Assembly (NCBI GenBank): GCA_964016885.1
Contig: OZ024765.1
Coordinates: 14,074,001 to 14,138,000 of the forward strand
Direction: 5' to 3'
Length of the DNA stretch: 64,000 nt
Source of the DNA: Eledone cirrhosa
Taxonomy: Eukaryota
Under the pieces are notes generated by a model, which saw only the letters and a list, made by a program, of their open reading frames with translations, was not told the DNA's origin and made no database searches. This document shows, piece after piece, positions 570 through 61,260 of the stretch (its first letter is position 1; each line of letters starts with the position of its first letter). Made by a program: the position numbers and the translations under genes.

Positions 570-845
570 TTAATTTCATGTTGTATTTTAACTTTAATTT
601 TAATTTTATCCTCTTTTGATATGACTGTAATCTTTAAATGTATACTGCCACGCTAAATGTTATAATGGATGTCGACCCACCAAGCAACAATATATGCATA
701 TGTTTCTGTATGTCCCCTGGGTTGAAAAGGGGGTCATATATGTGATCATTCATTAATAAATTTCTCCGAAGAATCCAAACCTCGGTTTGGAGGAAACAAT
801 TGTAAGCATATAAATGATTTGAACAGAACTTTGATTCATATAACT
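570..845 (+). mobile_element. Penelope-like element 3' end/pLTR fragment
   Basis: Homologous to 2010-2270 and to the end of the GIY-YIG element at 30050-30225; ends in (TA)n. Confidence 0.7.
763..808 (+). ncRNA. Type-I hammerhead ribozyme motif (weakened stem I)
   Basis: CCGAAGA-a-TCCAAAC ctcg GTTTGGA-g-GAAA-CAATTG-TA; stem I carries a mismatch. Confidence 0.55.
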
Positions 846-872
<27 letters not shown>

Positions 873-1859: not shown

Positions 1860-2270
1860 AATCATATAAAGAATTCGTCACCAGATCAACCAACCTAACA
1901 CTCTCGATTACCTGCTTAAGTGCTTCTACTACACGCGACTCTCTGCCACACTACATAAACAAGACGCACGTGCTTGCCACACGTATAACCTTTGCACTAT
2001 ATAATCGCTTAATTTCATGTTGTATTTTAACCTGTATTTTTGATTGTCTCTTTTAATATGAATGTAATCTCTAAGTGTGTACTGCCACTCTAAATGCTGT
2101 AATGAATGTTGACCCACAATATTTGCATATGTATCTGTATGTCTCTTGGGTGAAAAGGAGGTCATATAAGTGTTCATTCAATAATAAATTGCTCCGAAGA
2201 ATCCAAACCTCGGTTTGGAGGAAACAGTTGTAAGCACAAAAATGTTTTGAACAGTTCTTTGATTCTTATA
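1860..2270 (+). mobile_element. Penelope-like element 3' end/pLTR fragment
   Basis: Homologous to 570-845 and roughly 29780-30225; terminates in (TA)n. Confidence 0.7.
2190..2236 (+). ncRNA. Type-I hammerhead ribozyme motif
   Basis: TGCT-CCGAAGA-stem II (7 bp)-GAAA-CAGTTG-TA-AGCA. Confidence 0.65.
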
Positions 2271-2300
2271 ATTCATATATATACATATATATATATATAC

Positions 2301-4817: not shown

Positions 4818-5149
4818 TCATCATCATTTTACGTCCACTTTTCCCTGCTTGCAAGGGTGGGATGGGAACTGATTCTGGCTTGATTTCTACAGCTGGATGC
4901 CCTTCCTAACACCAACCTCATTTACAGTGAGTGCTGGGTGCCTTTTTGCCGTAGCACCTCCACGACCACTTTGCAGTGGAATGATATGGACTCCAGTCCC
5001 TATTATCTCATTTCTACAGCTGAGTAAACTGGAGTAATGTGAAATAAAGTGTCTTGCTCAAGGAAACAACACATCACCCGGTCTGAGAATTGAACTCACA
5101 ACCTTTCGATTGCAAGGCCAATGCTCTAACCACTAAGCCATGTGCCTCC
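4818..5149 (-). mobile_element. tRNA-derived SINE (family A) with RTE-like 3' tail
   Basis: Head GGAGGCACATGGCTTAGTGG (A box)...GTTCAATTC (B box), a CCTTGAGCAAGACACTT core, and a tail shared with the RTE 3' end. Confidence 0.85.
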
Positions 5150-13330: not shown

Positions 13331-13675
13331 TGCCAATTAATTGCGCACATTACAACTAATTTTTTTTTTATATTTTATATTACGAAGATAAAACATGCTC
13401 GTGCTGTAAAAACCTTTGTAAAGGGCCACATGTTTGACATGCCTGATATAAACAATACACACACATAAAGGGTGAACATGAAGTCTTTCCCTCATTATAA
13501 AATGCCATATCTCGGATACTATTTGAGATTTTACTTTTTCATTGTTTTAATTGGGGTTGATTTAATCGATTTTCCCCACAACCCCAAAATTGCTGGCCTT
13601 GTGCCTAAAATAAGAAACCATTATTTACGAGTTGACCCAATACATGTGTAATCATTTTTGAAAATTTCTCTACAG

Positions 13676-14218
13676 GCGATACACTATTTGTGGTGGAGAA
13701 AAAAAGCCGTCAATCCAGCAAGTCCAGTCAGAAGACGTGCCAGTCTCTGAATCTGTTGCAGAAAATGTCACTAAAGATTCCCCTGCCCAGCAGAAGGCTT
13801 CCTCTAACAAACGTCTCCGTTTCTCAACCAGTTCTTTCAAGGATACAAAACCTGATGGCGAAAGCAAAGCTAAAAAACGGCACAGTTTGGCGGCAAGGAG
13901 ACATTCTTACCACTATCGTTATGTTGCCAGCAGGACTGACTCGAATTTTGCAAAGATGAAAGAGGAAGCACGGAAGAAGCGCAAGAGCATGGCACCTGCC
14001 CCCAATGCTTGCGAGTACACTCTACAACCCCATTCGTCGACCGCTGTCAACTATGGCACGCCAAACACAGTGCGGGTACCGTCACTGGTTAAGAAGGCCC
14101 GTAAACGTTGCCTGACTGAGCAGAATGGCAGAACCCCAGTTCAAGAAATGTCAAAGGCATCTGAGAAAAGAAAGCCAGACCCAGCCCTCAGTGAAAAAAG
14201 GAAACATCTTTATAAAAG
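13676..14218 (+). CDS. CKAP2: CKAP2-like exon 3 (basic, low-complexity region)
   Basis: Acceptor ctctacag; in frame with ORF 13737..14276; donor AAAG|GTTTGC, phase 2. Confidence 0.8.
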
Positions 14219-15403
14219 GTTTGCAATCAAATTTTTGGAAACATTAAATTTCTTTTCACCTACGAAGGTCAGCTGAAAATTTCATAGGCTGATTAGGAAG
14301 GAGTGTTGCTAGAGCTGTGAAATCTTAATTTTAACTCTTATTAATAACTGTTGAAGTGCATGGCCTAGTGGTAATTGAGAGATCACAACTCCGATACTAT
14401 GAGCATGTGGTTAGAATGTTAGAAAGCCCTGGGCTTTCCTGATAATTTCTCCTGAATGAAACAGTTCTAGTCCTGTAGAAGCCATTTCTATATTAAATAT
14501 TTATACTCTGCTATGTATTGAGTACTTTACTTACTATGGTTACCCCCGATTGAACCCGGGATAAACATATCTATTTATATATATATATGTGTGTGTGTAT
14601 ATATATATATAGTAACATTTATATATGTTTGATATAATTATGTAGGGTAGTACTGAGTACTAGCCGGTTACCGGTATGACAAAAGGCTCAATGCAAATTT
14701 TCAAGTGTTTTACCGAGCCGGGATACAAAGTGTTAAAACGATCAAATTTTTAGTTTAGAACATTTATTTGCTGACAATTGTTTCTTCCAGAGGGAAGTCT
14801 GGAATCATCAGAGCATAGGGAATGTCGAAACATGTAACTAAAATCCCAGTCATTTAGAACATTTAGGGTACATAGTTGTTATTAGTGTCAAAGGCATCAT
14901 GTGGAGAGTCAGGAGTTAAAAAGATGTTATGCTTGAGAGAACACAATTACAGGCAGCACTGGTTGGAAGTGTAATAGGTATAAGTAAAAGTAAAAAGCAG
15001 AAGCAAAAAAAACGCAGGCAAAGAAGTTATAAGCAAGGACAATTGATGTACATGCAGGAGTCAATACAGTCAATAATGCATGTATGCAGTTGAAATAAAC
15101 ATATTTTGTGTGGGGGTGTTAAAGCAGGTTATATTTGTTATGAACATTTCAGATAGTGGGTAATTTGTTAGAGAGGCATGTGGTGATAATGTAGGTATTT
15201 GTTATGTAAGGTGTAATGTAAAGCACTAGATAGAGTTGGATATGTGATTTTCATTTAAGTGTTTTTGCCTCTAACAAATTGCATGTTCACTTAAAAATAA
15301 TTTTTAAATAATTAAAATATACAGACATGTATATAATGTGAAATGAAACCGGAAGGCCCATATATATATATACGTGTGTGTGTGTATATATATATATATA
15401 TAT

Positions 15404-19184: not shown

Positions 19185-19835
19185 TTATCATCACCATTTC
19201 CATCATTACTTCCATCGTCATCACTATCATCACCACCACCACCGTCCCCACCACCATCATCGTCATCGCCGCAACCATCGCTACTACCGTCCCCACCACC
19301 ATCATCGTCATCACCGCCACCATCGCTACCATAGTCATCATCGCTACCACTGTCCCCCACCATCATCGTCATCATCGCTACCACCGTCCCCACCACCATC
19401 ATCGTCATCATCGCTACCACCGTCCCCACCACCATCATCGTCATCGCCGCAACCATCGCTACTACCGTCCCCACCACCATCATCGTCATCACCGCCACCA
19501 TCGCTACCATAGTCATCATCGCTACCACTGTCCCCCACCATCATCGTCATCATCGCTACCACCGTCCCCACCACCATCATCGTCATCATCGCTACCACCG
19601 TCCCCACCACCATCATCGTCATCGCCGCCACCATCGCTACTACCGTCCCCACCACCATCATCGTCATCACCGCCACCATCGCTACCATAGTCATCATCGC
19701 TACCACTGTCCCCCACCATCATCGTCATCATCGCTACCACCGTCCCCACCACCATCATCGTCATCATCACCACCACCATCGCTACCACCGTCCCCACCAC
19801 CACCACCACCATCATCATCATCACCACCACCACCT
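19185..19835. repeat. (CAT/CAC)n-derived higher-order repeat
   Basis: ccaccatcatcgtcatcatcgctaccaccgtcc units; source of several spurious ORFs. Confidence 0.85.
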
Positions 19836-20012
19836 ACATTTCTTTTTAATTTATGTACTTATTGTTTTCCTTCTTTTTTTCCTTTCTTCTACCCTCAACC
19901 ACCCGTTACCTCTCCCCTCCCTCCACCTCACACTTCCCCGCCACCATCACCTCTCCCTTCCCTCCTACCTCACACTTCTCCGTCCGTCCGTCCGTCCGTC
20001 CGTCCACCACAG

Positions 20013-20374
20013 CCTGCCTCTGTAATCACCGACACGCTGCCCAACATGATCAAGGATCTGGTGTCGGCCAACAAGAAGGAAGAAGCTGCAGCCTGGCTGC
20101 TGCACTCCGCCGCTGCCACGACACCTCCACCTTACAGCGGCAACATCCCCTACACACCTTCACAGACCCCTTTCAATATGGGCTCCACTCGGCGGCTGGA
20201 CAACATCGTGTATGCCGACACACCCATGCCGGGCACCACCCCACGGGGTCACCGCTTGAGGTCAAATGCTGACACCCCGTTGCTGGATACCACCCCACAA
20301 GGTCTCCGCTTGAGATCAAGTAATTCAGTGAACATCAAATATTTGGTACAGAAGTCGACTCCATTCAAACAAAG
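20013..20374 (+). CDS. CKAP2: CKAP2-like exon 7
   Basis: PASVITDTLPNMIKDL...SVNIKYLVQKSTPFKQ, TP-rich; donor GTAAGT, phase 2. Confidence 0.85.
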
Positions 20375-22145
20375 GTAAGTTTGTCTTGATACTCTTCTCA
20401 TTGGCAGCAAAATCAGTAGAGCGTCGAACAACATGCTCTGTGGCATATAGTAACGGCCTTTTACTTTCTGAGTTCGAATATCGCCACGGTTAACTTTACC
20501 TTTCATCCTTACAGTTAGAACAGATATAATTGTTTCTACTTTTGGCACAAGGCCAGCAATTATCCCAGTGCATTACTGGTACTTTATTTTATCGACCCCG
20601 TAAGGATGAAAGGCAAAGTTAAGCTCGGCGGGATTTGAACTCAGAATGGCAAGGGCCGTAACTCTCTGTGTCAAGGCATGGCGTCCACCACTCTATCGAT
20701 ATTGCCAATGCAGTTGGGTCTATAGCAAAATACTAGTGTGTATGAATGTAACAAAGACGAAGTGGTTTGTGTGTATAATATTTAATAAACAATATGTGGA
20801 TATATAGAACAGTATAAGTGACAAGTCAATGAATAGATGAGAGAATGAAACAAAGTTATTAGTTACCGCTTGGTTGCCAGGGTGACACACGCCTGAGCGA
20901 AGACTCCTGGCGAAAGCCAGGAGGCGCCTGACCAAAAAGGCGAATGAGAGATAGAGAGCTTAACGTTGTTAGTTTTATAGGGTTCTGACCGGAAGTTACA
21001 GAAAGGGTTCTACCTCCTGTCTAGAGACCGTTAATCTATTGGGGTTGTGAGGTTCACAACAAGGGAGGCAACTCCTGCTACAGGTCATTTGGAGAGGTGA
21101 TAGGCGTCAAGAAATTTAGAACTAGGCAAATCAGAATGGGTGGATGGTAAATAGTTTATGCATTGCCCGTAAGTAAGAGATAGCGGACGACAGATAGACA
21201 TGATTCGAAATCCGTGATGCGTGAACACGTCTGTCTACAATGTGTGATATGTTGTGCTCAGTTCTCTTTCCCTCCTACCCAGGAAAATCTAGTGCAGAAA
21301 AAATGCAATTCCTGTGGTGCCTGCATGCCATGATGATGTCAGATTTGAGGTTAACTGAATTATTTTTTAATCTTACTATCTCCTTGGCTTCCGCCACACA
21401 TAGCTTGCATCACCCATCACCCATGGAATACACAACCGCACGTTGCACTATACTCCAGTGGAGCTTGTAGCCATCATCATCATCATCATCGTTTAACGTC
21501 TATCTTCCACGCTAACATGGGTTAGACGTGAATTGTCCCATTTTTGGCAAGGTTGGTCAAGTGACCGTGTCTCGCTCGTATAGGATTGTCTGGCAGGTTT
21601 TCTACGGCTGGATGCCCTTCCTAACACCAACCACGTTTACAGTGTGGACTGGGAGCTTTTTACCGTGTTACCTACATGACCACATTACAGCGTGGACTAT
21701 TTTTTTTTTCATTTTTTTTGTCATGACACCTACACAACCTCATTAGTTTGAACTGGATGTTGTGATACCAACATAACTTTATAGAGAAAGGGTGGTGTTG
21801 GCTGGAGTAGGGGTAGTGGGTTGGGGTGTATGTTTGGTTAACCTATTAACTGTGGGTTAACTTTGCACGTAGGGAAGGTGGGTCTTCTGTATTATTGCAT
21901 GGCGCCAAAGATCTCGATCCAGAGACATTGTCTTAGAGAGGTGCAAGTGTGCAAGGTCGGAATTTATCAAGTCCCAGGATTTCTGGGTATACCTACTCCG
22001 TCACTACCATAAATTTTGATCGCCCTGCAATTTTTTATTCAGTTGTCTTTCATGCGCATCATGTGACCATATTAACGTAATTTTCTCTCAAGTAAACAGC
22101 ATCTGATCCCTCTTATTCCTAATTTCTCATTTAGTTCATTTATGT

Positions 22146-26494: not shown

Positions 26495-27542
<1,048 letters not shown>

Positions 27543-27593
27543 TATATATATACACACACTCATATATCCAGCAGTTTACACACAAACACATAG

Positions 27594-30224
27594 CTACAAC
27601 ATCATTTCACACAACATGTCCATGGGAAAATTTAATAATAGGAATAGCAACTGCACACACACTAATAGGGATTGTAACAACAAGAGTAACCCGCACCACA
27701 GAAATGACCATAGGAACATTAAAGGAAACAAATCACCAGACATAAAAAACAGAAATAGAAGAAGAAATAATACATTTTTCAACCCTCCTTTCAATTTAAA
27801 CGTCTCTACCAACCTTCCTAGGGCTTTCTTCTCACTACTAGATAAACACTTCCCATCCGGCCACAGGTACCACGGCCTTTTAAACAAAAACACTATTAAG
27901 ATCTCATACTCTACTACGCCTAACTTAGCATACCACATAGCTAGTACAAATAAATGAAAAATTAATTCTTACTTCCAACAAACTAAATCACAACGGTCGA
28001 TAAACCTTCAAAATAACAGTCAAAGTAACATTATAACAAATAACCGTAATATCAATGGAAATAATAGTAATAGCACTAGTGGAAACATTAACGCTGCGTA
28101 CCACAACCCGCATAACCATAACCCTATAGCTAACCTCCAAACTTCTACACAGCATAGTAACCGGCAGACTAGCACCCAGAGTATTTGTAACTGTAGATCA
28201 AGTAGAACCTGCCCTTTAGATAAAAAATGCTTAACCAAGGATATCATATACTCATGTACAGTCACAACTAACAGCTCTTCTGAAACCAACATAGGCTCCA
28301 CTTCTAACTGCTTCAAAACTAGATACAATTCGCACCTCCACTCTTTCAAAAAACACAGTCTAGCCAACTCCACTTCACTATCTAGCTACATACACTATCT
28401 AAAAACTAAAAATAAAATATATACACTTAAATGGGAAGTGGTAGGTAGTGCAACATCGTACAAACCTGATAAATTTTGTAACCTCTGTCTACTAGAGACC
28501 CATACTATCATCTTCTCTAAACATAATCTCCTTAATAAAAAATCAGAAGTGTTCGCAAATTGCCAACACCGCTTCCGACACTCGTTCCAAAACTTTAAAC
28601 CCTATATATAATAATGTCAGACTGGAACCGGCACCACCCCTAGCAATTAACATCAGTAGCACACCTTACACCTCACATCCACACCCATCTCTATACTCTA
28701 AAGATAATACTGACAGCATTTTAGTACCACCTACCCTGGGAATACCCCCTTGTACCTCTAATACTGATATCTCGACCGTGGACTACTTATTCTGCATTGC
28801 ACAAATATAAGATTAGTATAAATTGGGGACACGGTACTGGTTGCGATAGCATAGTCCTGTGCATGGATTACCACCAAGAGATAGATTGATGATTAGATAG
28901 ATAATCGTATTGTTAAGTGATTATATACTGTAAGCGATCAGTTCATTGAATTATGCACGTACTCATCTTGATGTGGACTCCTTTAATACCTATTAATAGA
29001 CTCCACTCTAGCTTGGAGATGTGATACATAATTGATTTATATTTGAGACGGGGGTTGTCTATTGCTTGATGGCCAGACTAGTGCATTTATATGAGAGATC
29101 GGATCTCCAGACCTTACTGGAGATGCAGGCAAGCAATGACCCGGAGCCTACCGGGTGGCATATATAATAGTGGGACCATACCAGGTCCTACTGTTATATT
29201 ACATCTGCATGGAGCAGTGACTTGAGAGTCTGACTCCTCTTATGGAACGTTCAGATATGACACCCCTTAATTAATGGATGGTAATCATCCTAATATATAC
29301 ACCCTTGTACTTCTTAATGGACAACTCTCTAACCTATAAATGGGTAACATACTCTAGATATTAGTTATAACTTCACATGATAGGCACGTATTTGAATCAC
29401 CATTAATGTAGTTTAGCATAGTAATGTAACTAAGATAACTAGCTAGTTACCTCCCCTTACGCATTAATTCCCCTTAGTCATTCAGGCAATTCCGGAATCT
29501 GGACAGCATGATATATTAATTAAGAACCGACTGGATACGGTTTATAGCTTGACTATATGGCGAACCACTGCGAATTATACGATAGACGCGTGTTCTCTAT
29601 ATATATATTGCGTCTCATGGATTATGTGAGTGGTGGTGTGAGCAAGGACAGTGATACGACCTTGCCTACGATACAATAAGGTTTATAGTATGTTGAAGGT
29701 TTTTGATATTTTGCCGTTTCCCCGCATCCGAGACTGTATATCATACAGATGTATGACAATAAATGACTTAATAATTCAGCCTATATAATAAGATCGATTG
29801 CCTGCTTCAGCTGCCTGACCCTGCAAATATCATTCTGACGCACTCTAATCATGTATAGATAAGACACGCGTGCATGCTACACGGGAGATTGTTTCATACA
29901 CTGACTACTCTAAGCTTTCCTCTTGCTTTATCTACATAGACTGCCAACGCTTCATGTTTATCTTTATTTTCACTCTTATTTTCACTCTTGTTTTTATTTT
30001 ATTTTATTTTTATCCTGTAACCTTTATATGTAAATTGCCATGCTATATCATTTGATGAATGTCACCCCACTGTTGATCAATATGCGCATATGTTTTATGT
30101 GTCTCTTGGGTTGAAAAGGAGGTCAAGTATGTTATAAATAGTTGCTCCGAAGAATCCAAACCTCGGTTTGGAGGAAACAATTGTAAGCAAATAAATGACT
30201 TAAACTGAACTTTGATTACTGTAA

Positions 30225-30225
<1 letters not shown>
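27594..30225 (+). mobile_element. 5'-truncated Penelope-like retroelement: linker, GIY-YIG endonuclease, long 3' UTR, pLTR end
   Basis: FFNPPFNLNVSTN...LLDKHFP...NKNTIKISYS; CNC...CPLDKKCLTKDIIYSC...NIGSTSNCFKTRYNSHLHSF...KWEVV...CNLCLLE...LLNKKSE. One in-frame stop at 27955-27957; coding similarity ends about 28612. Confidence 0.9.
30142..30190 (+). ncRNA. Type-I hammerhead ribozyme at the PLE 3' end
   Basis: Stem I TTGCT/AGCAA, core CCGAAGA, stem II TCCAAAC/GTTTGGA, GAAA, palindromic stem III ACAATTGT, predicted GUA cleavage after 30185. Confidence 0.75.
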
Positions 30226-30255
<30 letters not shown>

Positions 30256-30256
<1 letters not shown>

Positions 30257-30900
30257 CTAGTCGAATTATCCGCGCCTTGCTGCCTTTCACACTTAAAATG
30301 ATTGATTTTAAATCAGTGATATAATTTATGAAGAAAAACTCTGCATTTCAATATTACTCAATGTAAAATGTAATGCATGAAAATAGGAAAATATTATTTT
30401 TTATAATATATCAAATCAAAATTATATTATTAAATCTTATTCTTATTTTGTTTCTTGTAAATAATTTTTTTTCAAAATATCAGTTCAAAATTTTTGTGAA
30501 TAGGCTTCATATCTCGTCATTTACCTATGGTTTAAATTTCATATAAATCGAAGGGAAACAGTTTTCAGCAGGGGTTTGTACCTCCGGAGAACCCTAATAG
30601 AGGGTTTAACCCCATTAGGGAGTCTTAATATAATTGAAATTTGCTGAATTTTTGTGAATAGGCATCATATCTTGTCATTTACCTATGGTTTAAATTTCAT
30701 ATAAATTGAAGAGAAAATATTTTCAGCGGGGTTTTGTGCTCCCGGGGAACCCTTTGATTAAAATGAAATATACTTATCCAAGTACCCTGGGCAATGTAGT
30801 TTCAGAATATATATGGTTATGGGGCGGGGGAGGGGGGGTCTATCTCCAAAACTATAGGAGGAGTTCGTAAACAAAGAAACAGACAGGAATACAATTTTAT
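30256..30900 (+). mobile_element. Non-autonomous Helitron-like element
   Basis: Starts ACTAG...CCGCGCCTTGCTGC and ends GGAGGAGTT...ACAGACAG...TTTTATATA, with an internal direct repeat; related reverse fragment at about 22335-22720. Confidence 0.5.
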
Positions 30901-31558: not shown

Positions 31559-31651
31559 ATGGCTGTAAGTGTTGACTACAACTACCTCGGTAACAGTGGC
31601 CTAAAAGTGTCCAATCTATGTTTTGGTGCTTTGACTGTTGGTTCTCCTAAA
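31559..31651 (+). CDS. Aldo-keto reductase (YajO/bacterial-type) exon 1
   Basis: MAVSVDYNYLGNSGLKVSNLCFGALTVGSPK then donor GTAAGT. Confidence 0.9.
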
Positions 31652-58768: not shown

Positions 58769-60285
58769 TCGAAATATAATACGTGAATGTAATAGGTAAA
58801 ATCCATGGGGCTGAAAATCGAGCCCCGAGGGCGTACGGAATAGACCAGCTCTATACAGTGGTGAACCTCAAACCTGAATAAATATATATATATATATATC
58901 TATATATATATATCTATATATATATATCTATATATATATATCCAAAATTAAGATAAATCAAAGTGAATTTAATCTAAATAAAAATTATGGGTGTCATGCC
59001 AGACCAAAACTCTGTTGAAAGGACTTGACTGCTGTTTCTAGTTGTCGATAACCCTATTCACACGAAGCTGGTATGATGTGTGTATTTTTAGTAGATACAG
59101 CATGTGTTACTGGCCAGTCGCTGATTTGAACTTAATGTGTAAACACAGATGGCTGGACTTCTTCCTTGTTGATAATCCAAGTATCGGCCTCCGTGATTTA
59201 CCATTCGATTAATTGGTGAAATATATTTCTTTAATGGAATAAATACAGGGAAGATTAATCATATTATAAGGTATCTATTTTTGAAGTTCTAGTTAACTTT
59301 ATTTAGTTACCTACCTAGCTATGTGTGCTTACACACTTGTAAAAATTATCCCCTGTGATTGTTTCATATGTTTATTTATATGTTAATCAATTTCTAGTTG
59401 TTATATATATATAAATTTCTCATTCTATCTTCTGATGATTTTTTTTACTACTATATCAAGTGTAAAACTAATAATATATTTCTTCATTGTACTGTGTTGT
59501 TTGCTTTATTATTTCTGTTTGCCTTGTGTATATATATATAATTGTTTCTACTTTTGGCACAAGGCCAGCAATTATCTCAGTTTATTACTGGTACTTTATT
59601 TTATCGACCCCGCAAGGATGAAAGGCAAAGTTAACCTCGGTGGGATATGAACTCAGATCATAAAGGGCTGTAACTCTTTGTGTCAAAGCGTGGCGTCCAA
59701 CCGTCTAGCGATACTGCCAATCCACCATATATATAATGTTACACAATATGATGGTGTAGCTGTAGTCTACAAATATATTGACTTCACACAAGGTTCTATG
59801 ATGTAAATTTAATAATAAATTTGAAATTCATATTCAATTCACCCGTTAAATATTTATATTTACAGTTTACCAATATAGAAATATCAAATTTTCTATATAT
59901 CTTTACTTTTTAAATATTCTCTATTATCTCTCATACTGTTTCTTTATTATTTCAGAGTATCAGATGACATTGACCTAAAGGAATATTATACATCAGCTAT
60001 ATCATCAATACTAAAGTGTACAGTTATACAGAAACAATATATAATCCTGTTTATATAACTCTATGGTGGAATTACTGTGAAATATTTCCTTACAACTGAG
60101 ATTAATAACATTTCTCTTCTTCATTGTCTGGCATATTTTGTATTGTAATTCAACTTGGATAAATTTTACAAAGAAAATATTTGCAGCATCTTCAGGTATT
60201 AACAAAGATCCCAGTCGATGGAAACAGCTGAACTGATATATCAGTATATTCTGAGAAAAGGAAAATTGTGGAAAAAAATTATTAT

Positions 60286-61260
60286 ATGAAAGGTTTACAT
60301 ATTCAAGAAGAGAAATCAAAAGAGATGGAGAAATCATCTTACCAGTGTGATATCTGTGGCAAATCATTCGCTGAAGATAGTAGTTTAACTACTCACAAAC
60401 ACATTCATACAGGAGAGAAACGATACTGCTGTGAGATCTGTGGTAAATCATTCTCTAAATGTGATAATTTAACTAAACACATACGTATTCATACAGGAGA
60501 GAAACCATATCACTGCGACATATGTGGTAAATCATTCTCTGAATGCAGTCCCTTAACTATGCATAAACGTATTCATACAGGAGAGAAAAAGCATCACTGT
60601 GATATCTGTGGTAAACCATTCTGTAGAAATGGTGACTTAATTAAACACAAACGTATTCATACAGGAGAGAAACCGTATCACTGCGACATCTGTGAGAAAT
60701 CATTCACTGAAGGTAGTAGCTTAATTGTACACAAACGCATTCATACAGGAGAGAAACCATATCACTGCGATATCTGTGGTAGATCATTCGCTGGAGGTAG
60801 TAGTTTAACTACTCACAAACGCACTCATACAGGAGAGAAACCATATCACTGTGATATCTGTAGTAAATCTTTCTCTCGAGGCAGTGACTTAACTAGTCAC
60901 AAACGCATTCATACAGGAGAGAAACCATATCACTGTGATATCTGTGGTAAATCATTGTCTAAAAGTAGTGACTTAACTACTCACAGACGCATTCATACAG
61001 GAGAGAAAGAACATCACTGTGACATCTGTGGTAAATCATTCTCTAGAAATGATCAATTAACTAGACACAAACGCGTTCATACAGGAGAGAAACCTTATCA
61101 TTGCGACATCTGTGAGAAATCATTCTCTCGAAAGGATAAATTAACGACTCACAAACTCATTCACAGAGGAGAGAAACCTTATCACTGTGATAACTGTGGT
61201 AAATCATTCTCTCGAAAAGATAGTTTATCAAAACATGTAGGTCTTCATATAGAAACCTAA
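60286..61260 (+). CDS. C2H2 zinc-finger protein with 11 tandem fingers, single coding exon
   Basis: Eleven C-x2-C-x12-H-x3-H fingers with TGEKP-type linkers. First in-frame ATG at 60286; candidate upstream acceptor tttcag at about 59956. Confidence 0.93.
   Translation: MKGLHIQEEKSKEMEKSSYQCDICGKSFAEDSSLTTHKHIHTGEKRYCCEICGKSFSKCDNLTKHIRIHTGEKPYHCDICGKSFSECSPLTMHKRIHTGEKKHHCDICGKPFCRNGDLIKHKRIHTGEKPYHCDICEKSFTEGSSLIVHKRIHTGEKPYHCDICGRSFAGGSSLTTHKRTHTGEKPYHCDICSKSFSRGSDLTSHKRIHTGEKPYHCDICGKSLSKSSDLTTHRRIHTGEKEHHCDICGKSFSRNDQLTRHKRVHTGEKPYHCDICEKSFSRKDKLTTHKLIHRGEKPYHCDNCGKSFSRKDSLSKHVGLHIET

Follow-up and report, generated by a model that had tools for sequence, protein, structure and literature searches.

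The hammerhead motif in the terminal repeat of a large lineage of Penelope-like elements (PLEs) of Eledone cirrhosa carries a C at core position 4, where U is canonical. The core CCGANGA is seen in ~95% of the copies, corresponding to ~4,200 copies, and the terminal-repeat hammerhead appears to have had C4 since the lineage arose. The canonical core re-arises in 2–13% of copies, yet C4 seems to have stayed the master state. With slightly better than even confidence, the C4 motif is considered to be a slowed ribozyme, dependent on dimerization and probably on protein, for which cutting is predicted from sequence, folding models, and analogy.

In the window, which is the whole analyzed stretch of 64,000 nucleotides, the motif CCGAAGA-A-TCCAAAC-CTCG-GTTTGGA-G-GAAA-CAATTG-TA-AGCA is found on the plus strand with C3 at 766, 2194, and 30147. 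These are the three sites at which a variant-core type I hammerhead had been noticed, and the motif is present at all of them. The copy at 30142–30190 is composed of stem I (30142–30146 and 30186–30190), the core (30147–30153), stem II (30155–30161 and 30166–30172), GAAA (30174–30177), and the palindrome ACAATTGT (30177–30184). The cut is predicted after A30185, which corresponds to position 17, and a microsatellite starts ~40 nt further on. The three copies had been described as keeping the core change and an identical stem II. Their core and stem II are indeed identical. In stem I, the copy at 766 contains a mismatch, and the copy at 2194 departs from the perfect palindrome with ACAGTTGT. 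The motif at 766 belongs to a short pLTR-only copy of a related subfamily (584–853, plus strand; 74% identical to the locus L061). The motif at 2194 belongs to another short pLTR-only copy (2117–2281, plus strand), in which ACAGTTGT is a G-U variant at the level of the subfamily.

A fourth relative, missed at first reading, lies on the minus strand at 14773–14811. It belongs to a copy of an older subfamily (14658–15100) with a GUC site and a different stem II, and its core is the canonical CTGATGA. This copy was considered as a canonical ancestor and rejected. When loci were retrieved with its upstream flank only, 29 of 30 had C4, and the single exception was this minus-strand copy itself, in which C4 has gone back to U4 (14810).

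The motif has the type I layout, a three-way junction of stems I–III that ends in stem I, and competing folds are predicted. All eight subfamily consensuses contain the type I core nucleotides C3, G5, A6, G8, A9, G12, A13, A14, A15.1-U16.1, and H17. The canonical U4 is replaced by C4. In most subfamilies, a single unpaired base stands on either side where the pair 10.1-11.1, usually G-C, is expected; the foot of stem II is likewise unpaired in many canonical motifs of the Hydra clade. The Rfam hammerhead models, suggested as a check of the motif, gave no support: there is no hammerhead among the best 150 of 199 matches of the window, and no hammerhead match at E up to 10 when the C4 motif and a U4 revertant were searched alone. 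The U4 revertant is also missed, indicating that Rfam models do not cover such architecture. In most subfamilies and several outside relatives, AATAAA or ATTAAA is present within a few bases of stem I (30190–30195 in the window and equivalent sites elsewhere). This could possibly be a polyadenylation signal beside the cut.

By the clade motifs described in the available text of Craig et al. 2021 (PMC8557442), the element is a Penelope-like element of the Hydra clade. With the endonuclease part as query, 150 genome matches were scored at 92–100% identity, several of them inside 830-codon frames. An open frame of 829–830 codons is seen in nine of 12 fetched loci (829 in one of them), and a hammerhead is present on both sides of the ORF in nine of the 12. 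In 11 two-hammerhead loci the spacing from hammerhead to hammerhead is 4,215–4,918 nt, and all 11 have direct repeats (pLTRs) of 142–1,216 nt with 96–99.7% identity. The intact protein contains RWR at 38, DKT at 123, YRDD at 354, CNCRSSRTC (CxCx5C) at 686, IIY..YIG at 705, CNLCLLE (CxxC-E) at 784, and N..CQH (N-CxH) at 800, and no CCHH motif was found in it by eye. Inverted 5' copies are seen, and there are two 3' end points, that is, an optional tail, as in Penelope-like elements. Among tail-less copies, 108 of 111 end at a TA/TC-type microsatellite, most of them 38–51 nt past the cut. The Penelope-like identity originally proposed is thus borne out by intact 830-codon relatives with RT and C-terminal GIY-YIG, by pLTRs, and by (TA)n insertion. 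Pfam gave no match for pieces of the PLE ORF or for the full ORF, and a PDB sequence search with it gave nothing meaningful.

The copy in the window (27580–30229, plus strand) is a 5'-truncated member of this young family. It is 96.2% identical over 2,686 nt to the full-length locus L062, and 96.5% to L061. The remnant of its ORF (27580–28611) covers the RT thumb/linker, the CxCx5C finger, and the GIY-YIG endonuclease (residues 480–827; 333 of 348 residues identical to the intact protein by tblastn). It is followed by the 3' UTR or pseudo-LTR (28612–30229), whose 3' end is repeated 5' of the ORF in full-length copies. A GIY-YIG ORF had been noticed here. Its endonuclease part is present, but only as a broken 3' fragment: it starts at residue 480 of 827, lacks RT, has a stop at 27955–27957, and has NIG in place of YIG. 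The window copy is therefore unable to move autonomously. Its 3' junction in (TC)n(TA)n (30225–30256, plus strand) corresponds to the first fixed end point of the family, 43–50 nt past the predicted cut.

A pattern with position 4 left free has 4,419 matches in the genome, and its reversed control has none, a contrast well outside what chance would give. T4, the canonical U4, is seen in 216 of the 4,419 matches, and position 4 is only C (97) or T (3) among the 100 matches listed. This pattern fixes the rest of the core; hence, two further retrievals left the core free. One is the flank retrieval described above, and the other is a stem-anchored search with 4,098 matches, in which C4 is present in 97 of the 100 listed. 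U4C had been proposed to be ancestral to the family rather than a decay product. The dominance of C4 in core-free retrievals and the single clade formed by C4 copies in the protein tree agree with this. In contigs from public runs, which are of undefined kind, come from one study, and may be from the same species, C makes up ~98% of the coverage at 14810 in two runs from a single sample, and no T exceeds 5% at 30148. Covariation of C4 with A7 was considered and rejected, as C4 is found with A7, U7, and G7.

A loose search for other families with C4 gave 1,492 matches versus 1,291 for the control, which means that these C4 matches are mostly due to chance. C4 is sporadic in the other hammerhead families of the genome seen in this search. 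Two of them, F3 and F4, have U4 in copies met by chance. F3 (L336:1647-4555; L341–L344; L350) consists of ~470-nt tandem repeats with a canonical hammerhead, and is retrozyme-like and very common. The family F2 (L331–L340, L348, L349; motif near 4,900–5,000) has a GGGC/GCCC stem II and a minimal ACGT stem III, and in several loci its hammerhead adjoins fragments of another PLE-type ORF. In F2, ~17 of 100 loose-search rows have C4, and two copies met by chance have T4. A second C4 sublineage of independent origin may exist within F2.

The C4 copies form one clade in the protein tree (SH-aLRT 97), down to ~56–70% protein identity; this tree was made by a quick method without bootstrap from 40 rows, leaving out fragments below 330 residues for the genome and below 450 for the metagenome, as well as 64 of the 78 metagenome loci. 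Its relatives were taken from genome, metagenome, and database sequences, with the Hydra-clade label based on the motif criteria. The sister family L345, from the same genome, has CTGATGA at the 3' repeat and C at the 5' repeat, by which it was found. A second Hydra-clade family of the genome (L136–L161, L361, L362) has frames of 714–715 codons and a canonical CTGA core; its stem II is T-rich and decaying in many copies. When the 78 metagenome relatives, many of them redundant contigs, were scanned with position 4 unconstrained, 70 sense matches were obtained: 69 CUGA, one U3-A8, and no CCGA. The same scan recovers two of the three C4 copies of the window, and the reversed sequence gave no match. 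The U3-A8 variant is at L189:2400, a Hydra-clade relative. In the published rows of the Hydra clade (File S2, PMC8557442), the core is CUGANGA in 26 of 26 and CCGA in none, in contrast to CCGANGA here. Based on the phylogeny, C4 is judged to have arisen once, at the base of the lineage.

In the reading considered the best, cutting would occur only when two copies pair via the palindromic stem III, probably helped by the protein of the element. Selection would keep a catalytically competent core at a low rate. Most of the RNA would stay whole as template, and a fraction would be trimmed or circularized. This reading is drawn from the match with Poseidon_Ac, the lowered activity of U4C, and the low activity of CUGA-turn mutants, which are described below. 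Against it, efficient cutting with subsequent circularization by ligation would leave the template just as intact. It can be further speculated, with confidence somewhat below even, that selection holds the non-canonical core against reversion, and that the element requires the low rate of such a tuned ribozyme, be it slowed or switched by protein.

The motif is conserved across subfamilies. From 195 distinct copies, eight flank clusters of at least three copies were obtained, which are 0.17–0.48 apart. C3, G5, A6, G8, A9, GAAA, and U16.1 are kept in all eight. The variable sites among the clusters are position 7 (A or U, with G7 also seen genome-wide), position 17 (A or C), loop II, and the unpaired foot of stem II. 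C4 is in the majority in seven of the eight clusters; one small cluster has T in four of five copies, in a sample enriched for T4. Two subfamilies alter the palindrome of stem III, both to G-U-compatible forms, as expected if stem III pairs between two copies.

Covariation of the stems had been proposed as a check, and it is seen in part. Among 41 sequences, 92.8% of the stem cells pair, versus 25–43% in slid controls, and at the stem II pair 21:30, A-U is seen in 22 and G-C in 14 of them. Changes on both sides are seen in 2 of 15 pairs, which is not above shuffles (329/500) and reflects few independent events. Stems I and III are almost invariant among the 41 sequences, most of which were fetched with patterns fixing those stems.

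The ends of insertions lie away from the cut. Among 127 3' ends of the young family, 65 are 43–50 nt past the cut, 32 are at 213–218 nt, 22 run into the ORF, and one is at the cut. None of the 34 5' ends of long copies (counted from 61 regions after excluding 27 that do not reach the ORF start) is at the cut, and 18 extend upstream beyond the 5' hammerhead. A genomic trace of cleavage, in the form of insertions that regularly end at the cut, was looked for and is not seen in these counts. A bulged hairpin is seen at L062:4130–4200, just past the first fixed end point, and none is predicted near the other end point. The ends on both sides of the cut, but not at it, indicate that the copied RNA spans the site intact, either uncut or cut and religated.

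G8 is changed in 150 copies, ~3% of copies. In some insertions the change is present in both or all repeats (L290/L291, L298/L299, and all three in L061), which indicates copying from templates whose core was probably dead. One round can thus probably proceed with no functional core in cis, and the two observations together, ends away from the cut and copied G8-mutant templates, suggest that cutting is either slow or, in cis, dispensable. For a transversion, G8C is more common than expected, and it is found on several flank haplotypes. That the G8C copies represent one amplified clade is not supported, as their flanks differ.

The same observations would fit a motif that does not cut, serves as a binding or folding platform for the RT-endonuclease, and has C4 as a mark of lost catalysis. 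Such a platform would also be in line with the predicted off-fold in the youngest subfamily, and with the hammerhead mutants that had no effect on insertion in vitro, according to the available text of PMC11167929. However, the variation obeys catalytic rules. At position 17, the eight consensuses have A or C but never G, position 7 is free, and C3, G5, G8, G12, and U16.1 are fixed in all eight. The G8 mutants remain a small minority and share no common flank haplotype. Loss of catalysis is thus regarded as unlikely.

Predicted folding depends on the flank and on the subfamily. In the cofold of the bare 49-nt motif, the dimeric hammerhead is the MFE structure. With 6 nt of flank, the window subfamily is mainly non-hammerhead, the probability of stem I being 0.09 in the monomer and 0.19 in the dimer; in the predicted off-fold, C3-C4 pair with GG before AAA, sequestering the core. 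The dimer-type use of stem III had been proposed from the palindrome. The palindrome is kept and the 49-nt dimer is favored, but dimeric stem III exceeds 0.5 in only one of the eight C4 consensuses with flank. Compared with U4, C4 raises predicted stem I in four of five GUC subfamilies (0.34 to 0.99, 0.34 to 0.99, 0.09 to 0.68, and 0.61 to 0.99). The models suggest that C4 initially did away with a faulty pairing, in the older GUC subfamilies, between CUGA and the UCAG that surrounds the cut. Together with G before GAAA in the youngest subfamily, it may favor an "off" fold.

If the gain in stem I is taken at face value, the ribozyme could be fully active in vivo, with C4 being a folding fix or compensated by protein, both repeats being cut, and the unit being circularized as template. 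More than half of the long copies (18 of 34) exceed one unit, both repeats of an insertion share private changes, and a circle model has been proposed (PMC4209133, available text). Nevertheless, published changes of U4 lower activity (PMC3088659 and PMC9901934, available text), C4 lowers predicted hammerhead folding in both subfamilies with G before GAAA, and the shared changes are also explained by template switching. Full activity in vivo is therefore improbable, and a slowed ribozyme is preferred.

C4 and G5 constitute a CpG, and U4 arises in 2–13% of genomic copies. On the copy tree, from which three deleted cores were left out, T4 copies are interspersed with C4 copies. Within one insertion, T4 can be found beside a C4 partner, as in L085, L096, and L104. 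Copies were sorted by position 7 by eye, on 100 rows listed each. The A7 subfamilies have ~86 T4 and ~75 A5 copies (scaled from 40/100 and 71/100 rows listed), and the U7 subfamilies have ~115 T4 versus 800 C4 copies, four times the number of A5. A control CpG that lies, like this one, in a CGAT context has decayed in 11 of 92 listed copies, and is fixed as TG in a sister subfamily. U4 masters are not needed behind the 4:1 excess of T4 over A5, as the control CpG decays equally one-sidedly. At the control site, taken genome-wide, CpG decay is strongly one-sided in the CGAT context (C to T; 11 vs 0) but balanced in the CGAA context. The scattered U4 copies, arising at a rate equal to the local CpG decay, indicate that C4 is kept at a site where back-mutation is easy.

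A neutral U4C, a founder hitchhiker that was never selected, would have needed just a single origin on one branch to spread. The sporadic C4 in other hammerhead families of the genome is compatible with it. It is highly unlikely, considering that this CpG reverts so often and a neighboring CpG has been fixed as TG in a sister subfamily, while C4 is still in the majority in unbiased subfamily samples whose flanks are 40–48% apart. One small subfamily may have a higher share of U4 (4/5 in the T4-enriched sample).

The element in the window lies in sense orientation upstream of an AKR gene, whose start codon at 31559 is 1,374 nt downstream of A30185, consistent with the ~1.4 kb initially given; a later exon matches Pfam PF00248. 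Another repeat and a minisatellite lie between the element and the gene. A high-copy repeat at 30257–30900 abuts the (TA)n tract and has deep contig cover; on visual inspection it is Helitron-like, with a short hairpin and a CTAG end. Immediately upstream of the PLE copy, a remnant of a Mariner-type transposon with inverted ends and an HTH_48 match is found at 26653–27545. Exon-like ORFs of an upstream gene are present at 13662–14276, for which Pfam gave no match, and at 19335–20378. A C2H2 zinc-finger array ORF of 342 codons is at 60232–61260. At least 29 other loci (40 scored among 1,414 candidates) match the last 206 nt of the window copy at 100% identity, and thus the insertion is recent and unremarkable. 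As the genome of 3 Gb contains ~4,200 copies, dozens of which share this very end, proximity to AKR is uninformative; nothing but position links the motif to the gene, and there is no evidence for a role. Despite the orientation and the short distance, co-option of the window copy to process or regulate the AKR transcript is scarcely credible for an unremarkable insertion that is separated from the gene by other repeats and has a single hammerhead with no partner within 15 kb.

The hammerheads of PLEs are near-universal, poor cutters in vitro, and dispensable for insertion in the one reconstituted system (PMC11167929, available text). The lineage described here represents a natural experiment, with a young family, intact ORFs, U4 revertants, G8 mutants, and a canonical sister in the same genome. 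Comparison within the lineage would show whether selection favors fast cutting, slow cutting, or the fold alone. Searches with a fixed core miss thousands of copies. If the lineage does keep a tuned, non-canonical core, which the CUGANGA descriptors in use cannot see, other retroelements scored as ribozyme-less may carry such cores.

A viroid hammerhead with U4C was reportedly described by Ambros and Flores in 1998. The viroid U4C motif has a stable monomeric fold. As far as the available text of PMC3088659 goes, its activity is lower in vitro and enough in vivo, and this active natural case implies that the missing U4 alone does not exclude activity. It is a rare variant of one viroid, whereas the same change is fixed in ~4,200 copies here. 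In pairwise mutagenesis, all mutants of the CUGA turn had low activity except the C3/G8 swap (PMC9901934, available text). In the available parts of the literature searched, no report of U4C fixed in a retroelement was found. C4 in PLEs is likewise not reported in the available parts of PMC6765202, PMC6155905, PMC3907566, and bioRxiv 10.64898/2026.07.22.740005. The base change thus has a viroid precedent, and its fixation across a large lineage of animal retrotransposons, at a site prone to reversion, was not found described in the text covered.

The minimal PLE hammerheads, as presented in the available text of Cervera and de la Pena 2014 (PMC4209133), share with the C4 motif the type I layout, a long stem II, a short stem I, an extra base after A9, and a palindromic stem III. 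A dimer is predicted for them, as it is for the bare 49-nt motif here, and their activity in vitro is low. They include the core variant U3-A8, and have a conserved G10.1-C11.1 pair that is absent here. The C4 core was not found in two of the three supplementary files of that paper.

The closest resemblance in protein and architecture is to the Hydra clade, including Hydra-1_Obim of Octopus bimaculoides (PMC8557442, available text). The shared characters are RWR in place of RWK, DKT, a CxCx5C linker, CxxC before E, CxH after N, the lack of CCHH, a C-terminal GIY-YIG, and (TA)n insertion. The hammerhead near the 3' end, the palindromic stem III, and the often unpaired foot of stem II are common as well. 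Besides the core, the length is different: the unit is 4.2–4.9 kb with a 3' UTR of at least 1.5 kb here, versus <3 kb in the Hydra clade. Hydra-1_Obim also has another stem II and another stem III (ACCAATGGT) than the C4 family. A stem III of the ACCAATGGT type is present in the second, canonical family of the genome.

Poseidon_Ac of Anolis (Frangieh et al. 2024, PMC11167929, available text) belongs to another clade, has a canonical core within the start of its ORF, and has a tail of 30–40 nt versus ~170 nt here. Its hammerhead cuts only with its protein. No RNA ends at the cut, and uncut RNA is the template. As in the C4 lineage, there are two RT start sites downstream of the hammerhead and an optional tail.
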